Origin: an uncultured Mollicutes bacterium
GTDB lineage: Bacteria; Bacillota_I; Bacilli_A; ML615J-28; CAG-313
Reading direction: 5' to 3'
NCBI GenBank assembly: GCA_900539265.1
Contig: UQBM01000001.1
Span: forward strand, 66,012 to 130,011
DNA length: 64,000 bases
Positions 1 to 10,359 of this stretch are shown here, one piece after another. Made by a program: the position numbers and the translations under genes. The notes under the pieces are model-generated. The model saw only the letters and a list, made by a program, of their open reading frames with translations. It had not been told where the DNA came from and did no database searches. Position 1 is the first letter of the stretch. Each line of letters starts with the position of its first letter.

Positions 1-3000
1 GTTGCTATACCAATTTGTATAAAGTATCAAAATTTAAATGATATTAAAATAATGTTTGGCGAAAATAATAGTAACAAAATTGTAAAAATTGCAGATATGA
101 AATTATATCATAGTGGAGTGTCAAAATATTGTTTAACAAACGGAGAAAATCGGGGATATGTAGATAAAATAACTAAAATAAAATATAAAATAACCAGTGA
201 TTCAGATGAAATCACTGAATACGTTAATTCGAATTTATATTTTAGTGAAAAAGATATTCAATCTACTTACTATAGTTTATTCAAAACGAGGGGCTTAGAT
301 GACAGTGATTTACCTTACATTTTATCGAGTTGTGATGGGACAAAAAAAATGTTGGTTAACAGTGTAAAGTTTTATTCTAATAATATAGAGTTTCCAGTAA
401 TGTTTGGAAGTGATGAATATGGAAATAATACTAGAGCTTTATATTTTTCTGAAGTAAAGAGTCCTGATAATAATTTATACACTTATGGAATACCACATTT
501 TTTGAAAAATATAAATATTAATGGGAAAAATACTGATTGTATTTTGCAAATTACAGAGATAAATAAAGGTTTAAAATCTGATAAAAACAATCATGAAATG
601 AGTTCAATATACAATTATTATGATATTAATGGGAATCTTTTAAAGGAGATAGATGAATATGGTGTCGAAGTATGCTATTATTATGATGAAAAAGGTCATT
701 TAATAGAAAAAACAATGAAACATGAAGATACTGATGAAGTGATTTCAACAAAATATTCCATTAATGAAACAGAAAGTTCAGAAGAAAGTTATAGAGGTAA
801 AGTTGTTACTACAACTGATGATCATTCGGGTAATATATCTAATATACATTATAACAAAGATGAAGAAAAAAGTTTATCCGTTGAAATGAAATATAATACT
901 ACTTCACAAATTAAAAAAATTTCAAATAATTTAGATGGGGCAAATTATTTGAAATATGATAAGAATGGTAGATTGTTGGCAGTAACACCTATTGGATGGA
1001 ACAAAAGTAATATGTATGGTTTTTTGTTTAAATACAATTTATTGGGTGAAACAACGAATTATTATTTAATGTATAGAGATGAGTTAAAAAAAACTAACAA
1101 ACAATTGTTATTATCAAGAAACATGAATTATGTAGAAAATAAATTAACAACTTCATATTATAGAGATTTATATAATTCTAGTGAAATAGATACATCAACT
1201 GTACATTTTGATAAATACGGAAGAATAACTTCAGTTATTAATGGTGATAAAGAAATTACATATAGAAGACAAGAACTATGGGAAAGTAATGGTGCTAGTA
1301 AAATTGAAGAAAAATATGATCCATATGAAAATAGAACTTATAAGTATCATTATAATGAGTTCAATGACTTAACGGAGTATGAGGTTTTTGATGAGGATGG
1401 TAAGAGTTATTTTTCTACTAAATTAAATTCACCAAACCAAGTACAATATGGAGGAGTATACTATAAGTGTGAAAACACAAAGGATGAAAGTAAACTAATG
1501 AATCCACGAATTAAAGAAACTATTACGGAAGTAGTTAATGATAAACTTGAGATATTACCTATAAAAACATCCTATGAATTTGATAAATTAGGTAGACTAA
1601 GTTACAAAGAGGATGTAATTAAGGATGGACTATTTGGAGCAAATTCAAAAGTAACAGAAGAAATAATTTATAAAAAAGGAACATTTCAAGTAGAACAAAT
1701 TACAAAGAAAATTACTAATCCACTGTCAAAATCCCAAACATATCAAATAAATTATACCTATGACAAAAAAGGAAATATTTCTAATAAAAAAATTACTTCA
1801 GAAAGAGGTAATGATAGTGAAGAAACTTTAAATGTATATAAATATGATAATGCAAATAGGTTAATTTTTGAAAGTAGTACAAATTCCTCTTTTATATATG
1901 CGGATAAGACATATTCATATAATAAAGATGGAAGTTTATATTGTGAATCTATGGCAGGTGAATCTATATATTATACATATGATAAAGGAAGATTAACAAA
2001 AAGAAAAGAGAAATTTATTGAAAACTTATTTGATTATGATAATTTTGGAAATTGTACACATTATAATATTGATTCAAAAACTAAACCTCAAAATATGTTT
2101 TGGGAAAGAGGTAACTTATTAAAACAATACACTTGTGATAAAAATATTAAATATTATTATAATGGTGAAGGAGTGCGTTTTAAAAAGACTATTAATGACA
2201 ATAATGTAGATTATGTATATGATGGTTCAAAGTTAATTAGGGAAGAAAGAAATGGTCTAATGATTAGATATTTATATGATGCAGACGGATTGAGTGGAAT
2301 TATACCATTATATAATAATGATGAATTTCAATATACATTTGTTAAAGATGCTGAAGATAATGTAATTTCAATATATAATAAGGATAAAGAAGTAGCTTAT
2401 TATGAATATGATTCATGGGGAAATTGTATGGTATATGATAAGAAAGGTGGAACCATTATTACAGATGAAGGCCATATTGGGAATATTAATCCAATAAGAT
2501 GGAAATCACAATATTATGATACTGAAAGTAAATTATATTTTATTAATGGTAGATATTATTCTCCGTTAATGAAACAATTTATTTCAGCAGTATCACCAGA
2601 AGTTGCATTTTCAAATGCTAATTCTTTATATAGTCTTAATTTGTATAGTTTAACTGTTGCAAATCCTATTAATTTAGTGTATAATACATATACCTATGAA
2701 ACATTTGAAAAACTTATTTATGATTCTGATGAATTAACAAAATGGCAATATTTTTGGCAAGTGACTTGGCAAAAATTTTGGAATAGTCCGCTCGGGAAAG
2801 CTATATCAATAGGTTTAATGGTAATTGCTGTAATAATAATTATTGTTGTTGCATTCTTTAATATTGGTGCTGCTGCTATCTTGGCAAAAGCTTTAGTAAA
2901 AAGTGTAGTAATTTCAGGGTTGTGGTTTTTTGGAGCAGCTGCAATAGCTGGCTTTTGCTCAAAAAAAGGTTTTGGTCCCGGTTTTTTTAATTATGTAAAT

Positions 3001-3453
3001 AATAATTGGTCGTTCTCATTGGCTATTACTGGATTTTTTGTAATCATAAGTACTAGCCTTAATATTTCCAGTGCTATTAAAATAGTAAATGCTTCACAAA
3101 AGTCAGCACTTCAATATGCTAAAGATGTGTTTGCTACTTCAAAAAGAAAATATAATATGGTATCTACAGCCATTGATAAAAAAACTGGAAAAATTTATTA
3201 TGGAAAAGCAGGAAGAAATCCTGATTTTATTCCAAATAAACTTTTAAAAGCAAGAGAGTTTCCATCTCTAGAAGATTGGGATGATATTTTTAATTGTGCA
3301 GAAGTGAGGGCAGTATCAGATGCTTTAGATGATGGGGCTAGGCTTAGTGATTTAGTAGTAACAACTGTAAGGGTGAAAGATTTGGCCATGGCGCCTATGT
3401 GTAGAAATTGTAGAAAACTTCTTCGAGGTATTTTATTAGTTGTCAGTGGATAG
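1..3453 (+). CDS. RHS/YD-repeat polymorphic toxin, 5'-partial, with a C-terminal TM block and a deaminase-like toxin domain
   Basis: Frame 1 has no stop from nt 1 to the first ATG at 52 (gtt gct ata cca ...), so the gene probably continues upstream of the window. It has more than 12 YD-type repeats (YDEKGHLIEK, YDKNGRLLAV, FDKYGRITSV, FDKLGRLSYK, YDKKGNISNK, YDNANRLIFE, YDADGLSGI, YDSWGNC). The RHS core-end signature is 'GRYYSPLMKQFISAVSP...LNLYSLTVANPINLV'. This is followed by three hydrophobic helices and a tail carrying NCAEVRAV and PMCRNC motifs. Confidence 0.85.
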   Translation, partial: VAIPICIKYQNLNDIKIMFGENNSNKIVKIADMKLYHSGVSKYCLTNGENRGYVDKITKIKYKITSDSDEITEYVNSNLYFSEKDIQSTYYSLFKTRGLDDSDLPYILSSCDGTKKMLVNSVKFYSNNIEFPVMFGSDEYGNNTRALYFSEVKSPDNNLYTYGIPHFLKNININGKNTDCILQITEINKGLKSDKNNHEMSSIYNYYDINGNLLKEIDEYGVEVCYYYDEKGHLIEKTMKHEDTDEVISTKYSINETESSEESYRGKVVTTTDDHSGNISNIHYNKDEEKSLSVEMKYNTTSQIKKISNNLDGANYLKYDKNGRLLAVTPIGWNKSNMYGFLFKYNLLGETTNYYLMYRDELKKTNKQLLLSRNMNYVENKLTTSYYRDLYNSSEIDTSTVHFDKYGRITSVINGDKEITYRRQELWESNGASKIEEKYDPYENRTYKYHYNEFNDLTEYEVFDEDGKSYFSTKLNSPNQVQYGGVYYKCENTKDESKLMNPRIKETITEVVNDKLEILPIKTSYEFDKLGRLSYKEDVIKDGLFGANSKVTEEIIYKKGTFQVEQITKKITNPLSKSQTYQINYTYDKKGNISNKKITSERGNDSEETLNVYKYDNANRLIFESSTNSSFIYADKTYSYNKDGSLYCESMAGESIYYTYDKGRLTKRKEKFIENLFDYDNFGNCTHYNIDSKTKPQNMFWERGNLLKQYTCDKNIKYYYNGEGVRFKKTINDNNVDYVYDGSKLIREERNGLMIRYLYDADGLSGIIPLYNNDEFQYTFVKDAEDNVISIYNKDKEVAYYEYDSWGNCMVYDKKGGTIITDEGHIGNINPIRWKSQYYDTESKLYFINGRYYSPLMKQFISAVSPEVAFSNANSLYSLNLYSLTVANPINLVYNTYTYETFEKLIYDSDELTKWQYFWQVTWQKFWNSPLGKAISIGLMVIAVIIIIVVAFFNIGAAAILAKALVKSVVISGLWFFGAAAIAGFCSKKGFGPGFFNYVNNNWSFSLAITGFFVIISTSLNISSAIKIVNASQKSALQYAKDVFATSKRKYNMVSTAIDKKTGKIYYGKAGRNPDFIPNKLLKAREFPSLEDWDDIFNCAEVRAVSDALDDGARLSDLVVTTVRVKDLAMAPMCRNCRKLLRGILLVVSG

Positions 3454-3462
3454 GAGGAAATT

Positions 3463-4305
3463 ATGTGTTTTTCTAAAGATGTACTACAATGCTTAAAAAA
3501 AAATGGTTGGAATAATGAAAAAAGAAATATTGATCAAATAATTAAATATATAAAACAAAACGGATATGAAGTTAATGAAAATCTAATTCTGTTTTTAGAA
3601 AGATTCGATAAGTTTACTTTTAAATTTCCCTTAAAAAAATCAAGAGATAAAGTATTTTTTGATTGCGAGAAAATGATAGCAGAAGATAAAGAAGTAGCAT
3701 TAGATTATGAGGAATCTGTAGGAGAACAGTTAATACCTATAGGAGAAATTGGTTTTTATTATTTAATTATGATTTCTTTGTCAGGAAAAATATATGCTTC
3801 ATTTGATGGTTATTTATTCTTGTTTGGAAATAATATTTATGAAATGATTGAAAATTGCTATTATGGAAATAAGGTTGAAGAAATTCCAATTAAAGCTAAG
3901 CCATGTACTTTTAAAAATGAAATATATAAAATAAATAAAGATGAAATTAATAAGTATAAAGAAAAATTTAATCACTCTTTTGTAATTGAGTTAGATGGGA
4001 AAAAATGTAGTAATTTAAAAAATTTTATTTTAGAATTAAATAAATTAATTCCATTTGATAAAGTATCTTTTGATTTTCAAATGCATATTTTAAATATGAG
4101 AAAATTACCTGAGTATATAAATAAGGAATCATATTTAATGATTATAACGAATTATAATTACTTTCTAACTAATGATGTTATTAATAAGGAATTATTTGAA
4201 AATAAATATAAAAGTGAAGTATTATCATGGTATGACAATTTAATTGCTGTAAAATTATGGGGTGGCGAATATAAACAGTTTAATATTTTATTAGTTTCTG
4301 ATTAG
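3463..4305 (+). CDS. Putative cognate immunity protein with an N-terminal SUKH-3-like domain and a C-terminal barstar-like domain
   Basis: It starts 9 nt after the toxin stop, and an AGGAGG RBS overlaps that stop. The N-terminal half (LKKNGWNNEKRNIDQIIKYIKQNGYEVNENLILFLERFDKF...LIPIGEIGFYYLIMISLSGKIYA) fits the remembered SUKH-3 pattern. The C-terminal half (FVIELDGKKCSNLKNFILELNKLIPFD...YLMIITNYNYF...FNILLVSD) follows a barstar-like pattern. Domain calls are by eye only. Confidence 0.55.
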   Translation: MCFSKDVLQCLKKNGWNNEKRNIDQIIKYIKQNGYEVNENLILFLERFDKFTFKFPLKKSRDKVFFDCEKMIAEDKEVALDYEESVGEQLIPIGEIGFYYLIMISLSGKIYASFDGYLFLFGNNIYEMIENCYYGNKVEEIPIKAKPCTFKNEIYKINKDEINKYKEKFNHSFVIELDGKKCSNLKNFILELNKLIPFDKVSFDFQMHILNMRKLPEYINKESYLMIITNYNYFLTNDVINKELFENKYKSEVLSWYDNLIAVKLWGGEYKQFNILLVSD

Positions 4306-4744: not shown

Positions 4745-5860
4745 ATGAATAAAATATCGTTAAATGATTATAAAGGGTCAATGATATATTTTCATTTTTT
4801 TGATACATATATAAAATTATTTGAAAAAGGTAAAGAAGTCATATTTAATGAACTCTATATAAATAATAGTTCATATAGAAGATGTAAAGAAAAAGAACAA
4901 GGAGTAGGACCAGAGATTATTTCAAAGTTAACTACTTATTATAATATAAAAGAAGTTAATAATGAGGATATAGATAATTATGAAATACTTTTAAATGACC
5001 TTTATACAAATATCTATTATAAAAATACTGATAATTACGAAGAAGACTTAAATAAATTAGAAACTTTAATAGCTGAAAATAATTTGATGTCACCAGTTTT
5101 TAAATTAATAAGATTATTACTACTTTTGAATTCTAAGAAAAGTGTAGAACAAGTGTATAATGAAAATACTCATGAATATAATTATATAAAAAAATTTAGT
5201 TCCTTTTATGTAGGAGAACTAAAAACTATTCTTAATATTATATCTTTATTCTTTGAATCAACTTCAGATAAATGTGAATGGGACCATGATTTCAAAAATG
5301 CACTAGCTTATCAAATATTATCATCAAAATGTTTTAAAGACCAAAAGTATATAGAAGCAATATTTTATGCTACGAAAGCAAATGATATTTTAATAACTGA
5401 TTATAATTACAAAAGAATAATTAGTGTTAATAACATTGTAATGCGTTCACTACTTTATATTGGTAACTACGAAGAATGTATGAAACTATCAACAAAGCAA
5501 ATTAGAAGTTTAGAATCATTAGGTGTTATAGGATATGATTTAATAGCAACAAAGTCGAGTTTGAATTTATCTTTACTTGGACTTAACAAATATAAAGAAG
5601 TTTTAATTAACATTAATAATCAGGAAAAGATGGATTTATCAGATATTACTTCAATGCTTATATGCGAGTATAAATTAAATAAACAATCATTTAAAGATTA
5701 TTATAAAGATTTTATTGAAACAAATAAATTTAACGAATCAACTTTAAAATACCTAAATTTGCTAACTTATTACTTTACACATAGGGATAAAAAGATATTA
5801 AAAACCTTATCAAAAGCAAATATTAGTGGAATTTTAATAAACATTTTACAAAATATCTAA
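4745..5860 (+). CDS. Hypothetical protein, possibly an HTH + TPR-like (RNPP/Rgg-type) regulator
   Basis: A GGAGG RBS lies upstream. The N-terminal stretch 'IFNELYINNSSYRRCKEKEQGVGPEIISKLTTYYNI' looks like a degenerate XRE-type HTH. The C-terminal 250 aa are helical with TPR-like pairs (AYQILSSKCFKDQKYIEAIFYATKANDI..., MRSLLYIGNYEECMKLSTKQI). The family call is weak. Confidence 0.35.
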   Translation: MNKISLNDYKGSMIYFHFFDTYIKLFEKGKEVIFNELYINNSSYRRCKEKEQGVGPEIISKLTTYYNIKEVNNEDIDNYEILLNDLYTNIYYKNTDNYEEDLNKLETLIAENNLMSPVFKLIRLLLLLNSKKSVEQVYNENTHEYNYIKKFSSFYVGELKTILNIISLFFESTSDKCEWDHDFKNALAYQILSSKCFKDQKYIEAIFYATKANDILITDYNYKRIISVNNIVMRSLLYIGNYEECMKLSTKQIRSLESLGVIGYDLIATKSSLNLSLLGLNKYKEVLININNQEKMDLSDITSMLICEYKLNKQSFKDYYKDFIETNKFNESTLKYLNLLTYYFTHRDKKILKTLSKANISGILINILQNI

Positions 5861-5980
5861 AATGGGCATTTTTATTACTCTAATTAAAAAGTGCTCAAAT
5901 AATCACCCATTTATTGGGCTTTTTTTTATTAAAACGTATATATTTATAAAAAAATGCTCAATTATACAAACTTTAGTCAT

Positions 5981-6009
5981 TTGACAAAACGTTATTTTTA
6001 ATGTATACT
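5981..6009 (+). promoter_or_regulatory. Sigma-A-like promoter candidate for the lipoprotein gene
   Basis: TTGACA (5981-5986), a 17-nt spacer, then TATACT (6004-6009). Confidence 0.45.
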
Positions 6010-6043
6010 AGTAATAAGATATTAATGTATAAAGAGAAGTTCA

Positions 6044-7096
6044 ATGTATAAGAGGTTTATATTATTAATTGCTATTTTAGCTTCATTATTTTTAATAGGG
6101 TGTAATCAGACTAAGCATATTCATATTAAGTGTGAAGAATGTGGTAAATGTACTGATGTAAATTGTGATGGACTAGAAGAAGAAAGGTGTCAAGGACATC
6201 AACATTATATATTTAACTTAACGATAACTGATGAAGATAATTTTATTTATGATAAGACAGCTGAAACAAGTTTTGAATCAGGCACTAAAATTGTGATGCA
6301 CTCTCGCCCAATAATGGATGCTGATTTAGCAATGTACATAAATGGTGAGTTTCATTCTATTCAAAATACAATTCGAGTAAATGATGAATACGTTTGGGAA
6401 TACTCTTTTGTAATGCTAGCAAGAGATACTACTATTGAATTTAAGACTCAAACATTAGAATATTCTGATGTAAAAACTATTCTTGGTATTACATCACTAA
6501 CAAGAGAAGATATCTTAAGAATAAAATATTCAAGTTCTAACATAGAGGATGACAATAAACCTAAACCTGGTACTTTAAAATTAGTTATCAGTATTGCTGA
6601 CTATGAAGATATTACTTCTATGTTGGAATTTATGAAAGTAACTGTAATTGAAGATAGAAGTGATGACTGGCAAGAAGATGCAGGTATATGTAATAAATAT
6701 TCAATTTATACAAACGATAAAAAGTATGATTTCGAAATAGTTAATGGATATATATTAGTTAATAATAAACACTATAAAGTTTTAGGGTATGAACCAGGCT
6801 GGAACTATGGGGATGTCACTTTTGCTTTTAATACTAATTTAGATTCATATGAGGCATACACATTAGATGGAACTAAAATAGGTGATTTTAATGGTCTATC
6901 TGAATTTGAGTTTTATGAAATTGATAGTCCTTTAACAGGTGTAGATGATTATGGATATTTAGAAACTGAGTTTGGAATAATTTATATTCATGATGCAAAA
7001 ATATTTTACATCAAAGAAGGAGAAAATTATACTTATTATGAATTAGTTTGGGAATGGGAAAAAGACTTTAGTGATATATTTAACAAACATAATTAA
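6044..7096 (+). CDS. Lipoprotein with an N-terminal Cys/His-rich module
   Basis: Signal peptide with lipobox LFLIGC, followed by HIHIKCEECGKCTDVNCDGLEEERCQGHQH. The rest has no family I recognise. Confidence 0.7.
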   Translation: MYKRFILLIAILASLFLIGCNQTKHIHIKCEECGKCTDVNCDGLEEERCQGHQHYIFNLTITDEDNFIYDKTAETSFESGTKIVMHSRPIMDADLAMYINGEFHSIQNTIRVNDEYVWEYSFVMLARDTTIEFKTQTLEYSDVKTILGITSLTREDILRIKYSSSNIEDDNKPKPGTLKLVISIADYEDITSMLEFMKVTVIEDRSDDWQEDAGICNKYSIYTNDKKYDFEIVNGYILVNNKHYKVLGYEPGWNYGDVTFAFNTNLDSYEAYTLDGTKIGDFNGLSEFEFYEIDSPLTGVDDYGYLETEFGIIYIHDAKIFYIKEGENYTYYELVWEWEKDFSDIFNKHN

Positions 7097-7107
7097 TAAA
7101 TAGTTAA

Positions 7108-7139
7108 GCATCAAGGCAAATACGCTTTGGTGCTTTTTC
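7108..7139 (+). terminator. Rho-independent terminator
   Basis: The stem pairs gcatcaaggc (7108-7117) with gctttggtgc (7124-7133), including two G-U pairs, and is followed by TTTTT. Confidence 0.55.
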
Positions 7140-7256
7140 TCTTTATGCAATTTTTACAATGTAAACTAATAATTATGCATCTTTTATAATTGAAACTATC
7201 AAATATAAAACATTACGCAGTATACACACATTAAAGTACTATAAAAAGCCTTCATT

Positions 7257-7294
7257 AGTGAAGTGAACCCCATTTAGTTCACACATAAAATAAG
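7257..7294 (+). repeat. Left terminal inverted repeat of the IS3-family element
   Basis: agtgaagtgaaccccatttagttcacacataaaataag is the exact reverse complement of 8368-8405. Confidence 0.9.
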
Positions 7295-7339
7295 ACTATA
7301 TCTCCTTATGATATAATGATATCGTAAGGAGGTTTTTTT

Positions 7340-7633
7340 ATGGCAAGAAAAGGAATTAAACACAATAATTATACAGTTGAGTTTATACAAGAAGTTTTGG
7401 AAAAATATTATTCTGGCCAAGGTGGATTCACTTCTCTAGCTAATGAGTATAAAATTCCAATTAAAACCATTAAAACATGGGTTTATAGGATGAATAAAGG
7501 AATTAATGTTTTTAAAAATAAAAAAACAAACTCATTAGGTCGTCCTAAAGAATTTGAAATTGATTATAAGGAAAGATATGAAATATTAAAAAAATTCCTG
7601 ACCTTCATAAAAGCACAACGAAAGAAAAAATAA
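7340..7633 (+). CDS. IS3-family transposase OrfA (HTH)
   Basis: This 97-aa protein has 'YTVEFIQEVLEKYYSGQGGFTSLANEYKIPIKTIKTWV' (HTH) and a leucine-zipper-like tail 'YEILKKFLTFIKAQRKKK'. An A-run sits at its 3' end where IS3 elements frameshift. Confidence 0.8.
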   Translation: MARKGIKHNNYTVEFIQEVLEKYYSGQGGFTSLANEYKIPIKTIKTWVYRMNKGINVFKNKKTNSLGRPKEFEIDYKERYEILKKFLTFIKAQRKKK

Positions 7634-8341
7634 TTTTTATTAATCTTTATTTAAACTTATATAGTTTGAAAAATATGTGCGAAGTGTTGAAAATCTCTAC
7701 TAGAACATATATAAATATAGAAACGTTGAAGATAAAGATTATTATGATTATTTAATTATAAAAAGGTATTACGAATTATGAATAAATATAATTTAAGGGC
7801 AGAATACGTAAAGAAAATACATCCACATACATATAAGCGGATTGAAGAAAATGTTGAACCAAACTTACTAAATAGGAATTTTGATATTGAACATCCTAAT
7901 AAAGTATGGGTAACTGATATAACTTATCTTATATTTAATAATAAACGTGCATATTTATCTACAATATTAGATTTATTTGATCGAAAAGTAGTAGCATATA
8001 GAATTTCTAAATTTAATGATAATCAATTAGTTATTGATACATTAAATGAAGCTATAGCTAAAAATAAAGACGTATATGGACTAATCATTCACAGTGATCA
8101 GGGTTTTCAATATACGTCTTTTAGTTACAAAGCCATATGCGAGTCAGTAGGTATTCAGATTTCAATGAGTCGCAAGGGAACACCGCTTGATGATTCTCCA
8201 ATGGAAAGTTATCATAGTATTCTTAAAAAAGAGACTTTGTATAATAATTATATCACAAATTTAGAAGAATATATAGCAATTGTAGAAGATTGGATAGAAT
8301 TTTATAATACAAAAAGAATTAAAAATAGGAAGAGAAAATAA
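7621..8341 (+). pseudogene. IS3-family transposase OrfB (DDE), disrupted
   Basis: The -1 frame is open across the orfA end and reads '...LYSLKNMCEVLKISTRTY', a typical orfB N-terminus, but it stops at about 7770. The DDE core resumes in another frame at 7778 (VWVTDITY, IIHSDQGFQYTS, MSRKGTPLDDSPMESYHSILKKE). Only about 26 codons lie where roughly 55 are expected. Confidence 0.75.
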
Positions 8342-8367
8342 TCTCTTCCTTTTATTTAGACATAAGA

Positions 8368-8405
8368 CTTATTTTATGTGTGAACTAAATGGGGTTCACT
8401 TCACT
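8368..8405 (-). repeat. Right terminal inverted repeat of the IS3-family element
   Basis: cttattttatgtgtgaactaaatggggttcacttcact is the exact reverse complement of 7257-7294. Confidence 0.9.
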
Positions 8406-8839
8406 TTTATATCAGTAATTAAAGTCTTATTATTTTCATTAATATAAAGTGAAGTGATAAGAAGTGCTATCAAGAGGATAAAGTCATTATTTATTATAAA
8501 ATAATATTAGAATAGGATAAAGTAAAGGATAGTATGTTGTAATATTAAATGAGAACACATAGTAGAAAGTATATTTAGAAGATATGTAAGTGGAGATACC
8601 TTTTAACAAATGGTGAATGTCCCATACTGATAAACTAAAAAACAAGAAAAGAAGTTTGTTTTCATTAAGTACAATTTAAAGTAGGTTAAAAAAAATACAT
8701 AGGAAATGCAATAGAGATATCCTAAGTATTATAAGTTAAAAAATATTTGATATAGTATAAACTAAATGAGTGAATTATAATAATATAAGAGGATTATCAA
8801 AGATAGATAAAGGTAGATTTCAAGTAAATAGCAATTGGT

Positions 8840-9409
8840 TTAGATTAAACTACAAACTATAATTCCTAAAATAGCACATATTAAAATGGTAAATATCGCA
8901 TTAAGATTTTTCTTAAATATTTTTTTTACTATGAATGAAATAGTCATAATAATAAACAAAATAATCATTGAAGCAAGATTAAATTGAAAGGATGATAAAT
9001 TTATATATCCTATTGACTTTGCAAGTAAAATGAGTCCAGTAGAAAGAATTAAACCAAGAACGACACTATTTATTCCTAAAAAGGCAAACTTAACATATTT
9101 GTTATCCATAATATGAGTAAAAAATTTAGCAATTAAAAGAATGATAATAAAAGAGGGAAGAGTTACTCCAATAGTTGCCACGAGTGAACCGAGAAAACCA
9201 GAATGAATTGAACCGATATAGGTAGCCATATTAATTGCAATAGGTCCTGGAGTTGATTCACAAATACCAATAAAATTGTAGAATTGAGTTTCGCTTAGCC
9301 AACCATATTTTAAAACTGTTTCTTTTAATAGTGGAATCATTGCATATCCACCACCAATTGTAAAAAAACCAATTTTCAAAAATTCGAAAAATAAAAGAAG
9401 TAGCTCCAT
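8840..9409 (-). CDS. chrA: Chromate transporter (CHR family) short-chain subunit, second half
   Basis: 'MELLLLFFEFLKIGFFTIGGGYAMIPLL...ESTPGPIAINMATYIG'. I place the start at the ATG that overlaps the upstream stop (TAATG at 9407-9411). The longer ORF in the track (to 9622) overlaps the upstream gene. Confidence 0.85.
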   Translation of the reverse strand: MELLLLFFEFLKIGFFTIGGGYAMIPLLKETVLKYGWLSETQFYNFIGICESTPGPIAINMATYIGSIHSGFLGSLVATIGVTLPSFIIILLIAKFFTHIMDNKYVKFAFLGINSVVLGLILSTGLILLAKSIGYINLSSFQFNLASMIILFIIMTISFIVKKIFKKNLNAIFTILICAILGIIVCSLI

Positions 9410-9972
9410 TATAATGTTTTCCTTTCCTTTATCATTGATAATATAATACCGAGTACTGCTCCAATTAAAATTAAAAATATTGAAGAAAAGTTTAAAGCAA
9501 ATAAATCTAGAAGAACCATTATGAATATTACACTTATAATAATGATTTTTTGCCATATATTTTTCTTCATTTTTATAAACATATCTATCCCTGCTTTGGT
9601 TATTAAATAAGCGACAGCACATTTTATTCCTACAAAGGCATATTGGACATAGAGGTTTTCCATTAATTTGTTTAAAAACAAACTAATTATAAATATGAAT
9701 AAAAAAGCAGGAAATATTACACCAAGAGTTGAAAGCATACTACCCAATAATTTTCCTTTTTTATAGCCAATAAAAGTTGCAAGGTTAATTGCAATAGGGC
9801 CAGGGGTAGACTCGGCAATGCCACATATTTCTAGCAATTCATCATTAGTCATCCACCTCTTTTTTTTCACTACAATGTCATTTAATTGAGCAATCATTGC
9901 ATAACCACCACCAAAGGTAGTTGCTCCTAATTTTAAAAATGTTAAAAATAAATCTAGATAAATATTCATCAC
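9409..9972 (-). CDS. chrA: Chromate transporter (CHR family) short-chain subunit, first half
   Basis: 'FLKLGATTFGGGYAMIAQL...AESTPGPIAINLATFIGY', with multiple TM helices. Confidence 0.85.
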   Translation of the reverse strand: MMNIYLDLFLTFLKLGATTFGGGYAMIAQLNDIVVKKKRWMTNDELLEICGIAESTPGPIAINLATFIGYKKGKLLGSMLSTLGVIFPAFLFIFIISLFLNKLMENLYVQYAFVGIKCAVAYLITKAGIDMFIKMKKNIWQKIIIISVIFIMVLLDLFALNFSSIFLILIGAVLGIILSMIKERKTL

Positions 9973-10359
9973 TTATTTTCCTCCTTGAGACTAAAGTAAT
10001 TGTATCTTACAAATCATTATATCTATAAACGCTAAGAGTTTTTCTCGTTTATGTTTTAGTAATAATCTAATATGTTTACAATTATACGTAAAATCCTATA
10101 TAATTTTGTAATTGAATTTATTATACCACTTGTATAAGTATAAGTAAACTATTATAATTTTATAAAGTGATGAAAAAATTGATAAAGAATGTAATGAATA
10201 CTAAATAATACAACAAAGGATATCAGTTAATTTTATTTGTTATCTTGACTTAAGAAACATAAGAATGATAGTGAAAAATAGAATTATAAATATTAAAAAT
10301 ACATAATTATTGACATATGTCATAAATAAGAGTAAAATCATATTAAAGGAGAAAACTTT

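Follow-up and report, generated by a model that had tools for sequence, protein, structure and literature searches.

A candidate RHS polymorphic toxin of an uncultured gut Bacilli bacterium with a hydrophobic pre-toxin module and a putative YwqJ-clade deaminase

RESULTS

An RHS toxin gene and its probable immunity gene

We analyzed a 64,000-nucleotide (nt) stretch of contig UQBM01000001.1 (here called the window; G+C content, ~26%) that opens inside a gene for an RHS protein. Reading frame 1 is uninterrupted from nt 1 to a stop codon at 3451-3453, and the window edge truncates the 5′ part of the gene. The ~257 amino acids (aa) of cargo behind the RHS shell combine a pre-toxin module of ~115 aa, with one amphipathic and three hydrophobic helices, with a deaminase and probably form the C-terminal part of an RHS polymorphic toxin of an uncultured, low-GC gut Bacilli bacterium. 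The parts of this gene and the immunity gene that follows it are listed below; hydropathy was calculated by the Kyte-Doolittle method in 19-residue windows (KD19) with a threshold of 1.6.

1..2679, + strand: RHS/YD-repeat shell (RHS_repeat plus RHS-associated core, nt 2407-2679)
2680..2799, + strand: linker with a Trp-rich amphipathic helix, DELTKWQYFWQVTWQKFWNSPLGK, opening the pre-toxin module (conservation, helical model)
2800..2886, + strand: hydrophobic helix 1, AISIGLMVIAVIIIIVVAFFNIGAAAILA (KD19 maximum, 3.26; helix in the cargo model)
2905..2955, + strand: hydrophobic helix 2, VVISGLWFFGAAAIAGF (KD19, 1.8-1.9)
2956..3006, + strand: short polar loop, CSKKGFGPGFFNYVNNN (module signature G-F-x-x-G-F-x-[ND]-x-[IV]-N-x-N-W)
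3007..3060, + strand: hydrophobic helix 3, WSFSLAITGFFVIISTSL (KD19, 1.65)
3079..3450, + strand: putative YwqJ-clade zinc deaminase toxin domain, 124 aa (homologues, motifs, predicted fold)
3463..4305, + strand: SUKH-3 immunity gene, 280 aa (Pfam SUKH-3, E value of 5.7e-14, aa 3-131)

The full toxin, of 1612 aa, is encoded at positions 5153-9991 of locus L001. Of its codons, the first 462 precede the window start (~L001:6539), and the 1151 that are shared, counting the stop codon, match the window without a difference. Pfam RHS_repeat matches the protein with an E value of 5e-9 in the window part and 8e-12 at full length, and TIGR03696 (Rhs_assc_core) covers window-frame residues 803-893 with 33.7 bits against a cut-off of 32.5. 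The latter match stops at nt 2679, in agreement with an earlier note on this DNA, which had placed the end of the RHS core at ~2551-2690. The layout of RHS polymorphic toxins, a variable C-terminal toxin with a cognate immunity gene, is thus present as a deaminase followed by SUKH-3. The minus strand has a single open reading frame (ORF) across the region, of 63 aa, and no alternative feature.

The C-terminal tail is a predicted zinc deaminase

At the codon level, TGT-GCA-GAA (CAE) occupies 3295-3303 and CCT-ATG-TGT-AGA-AAT-TGT (PMCRNC) occupies 3394-3411, with 13 codons remaining to the stop, as the earlier note had described. An exhaustive phmmer search of the tail against 1.84 billion representatives returned 214 homologues at an E value of ≤1e-3 and 26 at ≤1e-10, nearly all of them C-terminal domains of longer proteins; a word-indexed search with the 253-aa cargo returned only the toxin itself. 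The N-terminal parts found among family members are RHS, PAAR, prePAAR, PT-HINT or a type VII secretion system (T7SS) signal. The residues expected to bind zinc and catalyze deamination are nearly invariant in a 148-sequence alignment (C73 in 145 sequences, E75 in 146, C108 in 147 and C111 in 146), and so are N72 and N110 of NCAE and CxNC. In a few members (P0111, P0094 and P0137), the deaminase domain lies at the N terminus or in mid-protein and 170-655 further residues follow. One long member has SUKH-3 within the same polypeptide. Toxin-immunity fusions or merged gene calls may account for these proteins.

The relatives tie the tail to the YwqJ-deaminase family of Pfam. PF14431 matches 46 of 57 homologue domain segments (best E value, 6e-10) and dCMP_cyt_deam_1 matches 20 of the 57; among 78 longer family members, 37 match PF14431 at an E value of ≤1e-3. 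P0017, which is related to the window tail with an E value of 4e-12, scores 28.7 bits on PF14431, above the gathering score, and member P0044 carries the NCBI name "YwqJ-related putative deaminase." A phmmer search of the tail against PDB sequences gave no matches; a profile of the family matches tetrameric cytidine deaminases in the PDB (E value, 1.8e-4) with CAE and PCxxC in register. SCP1.201 (DddA-like) membership was considered and rejected, as the window and 57 relatives matched dCMP_cyt_deam_1 and YwqJ-deaminase only. The suggestion that DddA is a toxin "of this class" does not hold: DddA belongs to the SCP1.201 clade.

The fold of the tail was predicted with AlphaFold2 from a 14-row alignment, for which a word-indexed search with the family profile supplied 13 proteins. 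The model (predicted local distance difference test score [pLDDT], 85.4; predicted template modeling score, 0.83) contains, in order, helix 1 (residues 2-27), strands 1 and 2 (33-39 and 45-49), an insert of ~30 residues (50-79), helix 2 with CAE (80-90), strand 3 (98-104), helix 3 with CRNC (115-120; nt 3400-3411), and strand 4 (125-127). When the model was compared with the PDB by Foldseek, the top 34 matches were all zinc deaminases (blasticidin-S, cytidine, dCMP, and cytosine), with probabilities of up to 1.0. The tail is accordingly predicted, on the basis of this model, to adopt a deaminase fold that ends after strand 4. Homologues, the PF14431 link, the PDB profile match, the AlphaFold2 fold and the Foldseek matches all support the earlier proposal of a YwqJ-like toxin candidate with a deaminase fold. 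That proposal also called the domain very compact. The 13 residues after CxxC are real but not special: across 141 relatives the median is 13 (quartiles, 12-15), and 121 of the 141 have ≤20.

The domain fits a divergent part of the YwqJ clade

Iyer et al. (2011) described the YwqJ clade as having Gx[CH]xE in helix 2, an insert with a conserved His between strand 2 and helix 2, an insert before CxxC, and members that stop after helix 3 or strand 4; its contexts include RHS, ALF, PAAR, and hemagglutinin repeats, with SUKH3 or Imm6 as immunity proteins. The window shows the truncation after strand 4, the upstream RHS core and the downstream SUKH-3. Between strand 3 and CxxC, it has a loop of ~9 residues (VKDLAMAPM), and members cover ~97 residues against ~126 positions of the hidden Markov model, which suggests that the second insert is short or absent. 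The Cys-for-His substitution had been taken as typical of YwqJ-like deaminases; it does fit Gx[CH]xE, but Bacillus subtilis YwqJ has His, and the Cys form of the window also matches tetrameric cytidine and blasticidin-S deaminases. The domain is best called a member of a divergent, four-stranded subgroup of the YwqJ clade. The combination of RHS, a truncated YwqJ-clade deaminase and SUKH-3 is one that Iyer et al. (2011) had already catalogued.

A recurrent hydrophobic module precedes the toxin

In the part of the toxin that lies in the window, KD19 values of ≥1.6 are confined to nt ~2782-3078 (peak, 3.26) and define segments at window-frame residues 934-962, 969-985, and 1003-1020, confirming the three strongly hydrophobic segments noted earlier at nt ~2800-3065. 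Over the first 1300 aa of the 1612-aa protein, KD19 never rises above 0.78. In a model of the cargo, the module is all-helical at low confidence (pLDDT, 50-70), with the linker at 2680-2799 predicted to be helical at a pLDDT of 60-70.

The module had no match in Pfam or PHROGs or to PT-TG. PT-TG (PF14449) was specifically considered as its identity and set aside, with no match in the window at an E value of ≤0.1 or ≤1 and none in P0159-P0167. It is conserved in four relatives (P0007, P0005, P0032, and P0003), which share with the window a Trp-rich helix (DELTxWQ...FWNSPxGK), two hydrophobic helices, a G-F-x-x-G-F...N-x-N-W loop, and a third hydrophobic helix. The counterpart of the Trp-rich helix in P0007 is DELTDWQSFVKSWKAFWNSPFGK; conservation there is looser in P0003 and P0160-P0165. 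Helix 1 aligns with hydrophobic helices of the relatives, helix 2 shares the pattern VIGxGxxLxxGAxIAG with them, and helix 3 aligns with their "W[AS]Q.[LV]AIS..." segment. The loop motif F-W/F-E/P-G-F-A/F-N/D...N-E/N-N-W is common to the window, P0005, P0007, and P0032, and a loop Gly (G994 in the window frame; G101 of the first sequence) is the single invariant column of alignment A3.

A search with a profile of the module identified ten proteins that carry it, some of them directly 3′ of an RHS core. The domains that follow it include Tox-REase-9 (P0162; E value, 2.5e-13), HINT (P0159) and another CAE/CxxC deaminase (P0161); the C termini after the module in P0160, P0166, and P0167 have no assigned family. 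The modules of P0161 and P0162 agree at 104 of 113 residues (92%), while their downstream toxin domains are unrelated. Near-identical modules in front of unrelated toxins place a recombination boundary after the last helix, and since the module stays constant while toxins are swapped, it is part of the delivery scaffold and not of the toxin. Judged by these sequence comparisons, the hydrophobic block is a recurrent pre-toxin module of the conserved delivery part.

Hydrophobic stretches before the deaminase are not restricted to this module. They are present in 24 of the 76 family representatives with enough upstream sequence, and they occur in canonical RHS proteins (DPxG...DPxG, then Gly-rich helices) as well as in PAAR/prePAAR-class-I proteins. 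The view that a membrane-helix block is an unusual layout for an RHS protein was therefore overstated.

A SUKH-3 gene follows the toxin gene

GGAGG precedes the start codon of the immunity gene, which lies 9 nt past the stop of the toxin gene. The product of the immunity gene is likely to be the cognate immunity protein of the deaminase, as the Pfam SUKH-3 match and the gene arrangement indicate. In locus L008, a 280-aa SUKH-3 gene directly follows a deaminase-only ORF (P0152) that is 84% identical to the window tail. In L009, a 165-aa SUKH-3 gene directly follows a distant deaminase homologue, and divergently transcribed VgrG, DUF4123, and PAAR genes adjoin, a type VI secretion context. For the third homologue examined (L010), no recognizable SUKH-3 was present on the short contig. 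P0152 itself is a stand-alone deaminase of 123 aa with only short ORFs upstream. Together with its SUKH-3 gene (L008:1734-2957), it resembles either a toxin-immunity cassette that has been orphaned or an RHS gene that has decayed.

The C-terminal ~150 aa of the immunity protein (aa 140-280; window 3880-4302) had no Pfam or PHROG match. This half could be a second immunity domain. A Barstar-like identity, suspected from its sequence, was not supported by Pfam or PHROGs.

Neighboring genes, conservation, and host

Upstream of the toxin gene (L001:1-5148) lie the 3′ end of a recombinase gene, a 638-aa phage protein (phrog_4031; E value, 1.7e-142), a Phage_holin_5_2 holin, a 186-aa ORF, and a 449-aa Mur-ligase-like gene. 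Locus L007 has ORFs of 186, 449, 1612, and 280 aa in the same order, preceded by holin-sized short ORFs. The toxin may be prophage-associated cargo that is released by lysis.

The closest species-representative genome is a "Bacilli bacterium" metagenome-assembled genome (MAG) from water-deer rectum, in which the cargo is 96% identical and the gene order is the same. The exact 280-aa immunity sequence is indexed in 1537 blocks of a public assembly collection, with contigs of up to 479 kb among those read, and the host seems to be widespread in sequenced metagenomes despite being represented at the MAG level only.

Downstream of the immunity gene, the window contains the following features.

4745-5860: 371-aa ORF with no family match
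6044-7096: 350-aa ORF with no family match, a lipoprotein-type leader (...SLFLIGCNQ), and Cys-rich N-terminal motifs
7340-8341: apparent two-ORF insertion-sequence transposase (97 aa and 187 aa), IS3-type; the second ORF has an rve/rve_3 integrase core

The 371-aa and 350-aa ORFs keep their position in all six metagenome loci. The transposase pair lies ~3 kb downstream of the immunity gene.

DISCUSSION

A model for delivery and action

The features of the locus can be joined in a model. The RHS shell would enclose the hydrophobic cargo and shield its hydrophobic part. Once the protein has been released and has met a competitor, the helices might insert in the target cytoplasmic membrane and help the small deaminase to enter; we hold this step tentatively, at slightly less than even confidence. 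A role in crossing the target membrane is plausible and is the most economical reading of the module, by analogy with the transmembrane regions of prePAAR effectors. The earlier suggestion of a self-translocation device is backed indirectly by the finding of one module in front of unrelated toxins. Inside the target, the deaminase could turn cytosine to uracil in single-stranded DNA (ssDNA), as YwqJ does, a step for which we would give belief and doubt equal weight. The resulting uracil would lead to mutagenesis and repair-mediated damage, and in the producer, SUKH-3 would neutralize the enzyme.

The proposed substrate comes from B. subtilis YwqJ, in which LXG is followed by PT-TG and then PF14431. 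YwqJ is a T7SSb-delivered ssDNA cytidine deaminase with no 5′-base preference and minimal activity on double-stranded DNA (dsDNA), and its antagonism needs the catalytic Glu (PMC13648612, preprint of 30 Sept 2026). Homology to YwqJ makes ssDNA cytosine the leading guess for the window domain. The question of substrate, which the earlier note had raised, is in this way answered in part: for the family prototype (ssDNA cytidine) only.

Several observations weigh against this account. The tail itself scores 14.4 bits on PF14431 (E value, 0.044), under the gathering cut-off of 25.9, and 17.2 bits on dCMP_cyt_deam_1 (E value, 0.005), also below threshold, so that its family assignment is transitive. 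The Foldseek E values are weak (~1e-2), with template modeling scores of 0.35-0.57. The window protein lacks the Gly of Gx[CH]xE, with Phe in its place (F-N-C-A-E), and has Pro at the position of the insert His of the clade; among 148 relatives, the Gly is present in 23 and the His in 58. The domain has four strands, against the five-stranded sheet described for the modeled toxin domain of YwqJ, and its activity and substrate may therefore differ from those of YwqJ. The transmembrane status of the module is derived from hydropathy and a helical model of low confidence (pLDDT, 50-70), not from a dedicated predictor.

Release is the other difficulty. In Tse5, RhsA, and Rhs1, an aspartyl protease with the motif DPXGX18DPXG severs the toxin from the shell (PMC10684867). 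The 1612-aa protein contains no DPxG anywhere, and the canonical DPXGX18DPXG(L) autoprotease motif is absent; the equivalent positions (window 2551-2700; full-protein residues ~1313-1360) read RYYSP...AVSPEV...ANPINLVYN, i.e., Ser-Pro. The usual step of cleavage and release is consequently unsupported. P0165 and P0003, which have the same type of module, likewise lack the canonical motif, and canonical RHS-deaminase relatives such as P0010 and P0034 retain it. Neither a signal peptide nor LXG, PAAR, or another trafficking domain was recognized in the toxin, and in its full N terminus, taken from L001, RHS repeats are the only Pfam domains and a hydrophobic leader is absent. Only two features go beyond the textbook picture of an RHS toxin, namely the loss of the autoprotease motif and the unannotated hydrophobic module before the toxin.

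Alternative explanations

The domain might be an active deaminase with a target other than ssDNA cytosine, such as RNA or tRNA, dsDNA, a free nucleoside or nucleotide, or a small molecule. We consider this unlikely, though it is the strongest of the alternatives. The nearest solved structures and the PDB matches are nucleoside and blasticidin-S deaminases, which also have three Cys residues at the zinc site, and the window domain is without the fifth strand of the YwqJ toxin-domain model; these points lend other substrates some probability. An earlier study had proposed that YwqJ itself might act on small molecules, since chromosome and rRNA looked intact. Yet YwqJ, the only protein of the Pfam family to have been characterized, deaminates cytidine in ssDNA and shows minimal activity on dsDNA, and characterized bacterial toxin deaminases mostly have DNA targets. 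A cytoplasmic SUKH-3 protein fits an intracellular macromolecular target without discriminating among the substrate options.

A second alternative concerns the hydrophobic block, which could anchor the protein in the producer membrane, or be a second, membrane-damaging toxin like the Tse5 C terminus, instead of a translocator. The block comprises the only hydrophobic segments in a 1612-aa protein that has no other export or anchor signal, Tse5 demonstrates that an RHS cocoon is able to carry a hydrophobic pore-forming C terminus, and P0163 and P0164 end soon after the module, though these may be truncated gene calls. In complete sequences, however, a separate enzymatic toxin always follows the module, which stays constant as toxins are swapped, and the immunity protein is a soluble SUKH-3, typical of cytoplasmic enzymatic toxins, not a membrane protein. 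An anchor in the producer membrane is also hard to square with solved RHS structures, in which the C terminus lies inside the shell (PMC10684867). Taken together, these points leave either role doubtful, a shade more so than a different substrate.

That the tail is a degenerate, catalytically dead remnant in a locus with no working toxin system is very improbable: its subthreshold scores on curated models, the absence of an autoprotease motif and of any export signal found, and the IS3-type transposase 3 kb downstream would agree with decay, but the four zinc and catalytic residues are all in place, as are most positions that the family conserves, the 1612-aa ORF is unbroken and identical in several long metagenome contigs, a 1612-aa ORF with a 96% identical cargo region and unchanged gene order is present in another species-level genome, and the immunity gene is intact and tightly linked, with its exact protein in 1537 assembly-collection blocks.

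Comparison with known systems

With the YwqJ-like toxins (PF14431, the Iyer clade, B. subtilis YwqJ/YwqK), the window protein shares a C-terminal zinc deaminase of polymorphic toxins with [CH]xE...CxxC, an insert between strand 2 and helix 2, truncation after strand 4, and the association with RHS and SUKH-3. By its published description, B. subtilis YwqJ is an LXG/T7SSb protein with PT-TG, a His zinc ligand, and a five-stranded sheet, whereas the window encodes a four-stranded domain with a Cys ligand, placed in an RHS toxin behind a hydrophobic pre-toxin module. Tetrameric cytidine and blasticidin-S deaminases (PDB 3dmo, 1jtk, and 2z3g) have in common with it the three-Cys zinc site, small size, and a CAE-PCxxC spacing of ~33 residues. 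These, however, are housekeeping or resistance enzymes that act on free nucleosides and have strands 4 and 5 after helix 3, while the window domain ends 13 residues past CxxC, has a 30-residue insert before helix 2, and stands in a toxin-immunity context. DddA/SCP1.201 and SsdA likewise join an interbacterial deaminase toxin to a delivery domain, each with its own immunity protein, and are of practical interest for base editing, but they belong to other clades of the superfamily, with Imm1/Imm4 as immunity proteins in the table of Iyer et al.

For the module, there is an analogy to class I prePAAR/Tse6-type effectors from type VI secretion systems (T6SS), which also have hydrophobic helices between a delivery domain and a toxin acting in the cytoplasm; the transmembrane regions of prePAAR effectors are implicated in crossing the target inner membrane (PMC7773334). 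Some members of the deaminase family described here have PAAR/prePAAR_I, then a hydrophobic stretch, and then the deaminase. The window protein differs in having no PAAR or prePAAR, in coming from a Bacilli genome without T6SS context, and in showing no sequence similarity in the module; its helices follow the RHS core and are presumably inside the shell, unlike those of prePAAR/Tse6 proteins. Tse5 of Pseudomonas aeruginosa shares an RHS shell with a strongly hydrophobic C-terminal segment that needs shielding until it reaches a membrane (PMC10684867). The DPXGX19DPXG aspartyl protease of Tse5 releases the hydrophobic part, which is the toxin, whereas in the window an enzymatic toxin follows the helices and the motif is absent.

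Significance

The toxin family, its RHS/SUKH-3 pairing, and its truncated form were catalogued in 2011, and the substrate of the prototype was reported in 2026. Because both the kind of toxin and the prototype substrate are already published, the central claim adds a new member, not a new principle. A stronger, joint claim would be that the block is an autonomous, toxin-agnostic translocation domain of Gram-positive RHS toxins that lack the autoprotease and known export signals, and that the four-stranded domain of ~110-124 residues is an active DNA cytosine deaminase; we regard both being true together as quite unlikely. If active on DNA, the ~120-residue core without strand 5 would be one of the smallest known DNA cytosine deaminases, a useful minimal scaffold for base editing and a test case for the minimum of the deaminase fold that catalysis requires. 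For the biology of these toxins, the module offers a concrete candidate for a step as yet poorly understood, the passage of polymorphic toxins of Gram-positive bacteria across the target membrane.

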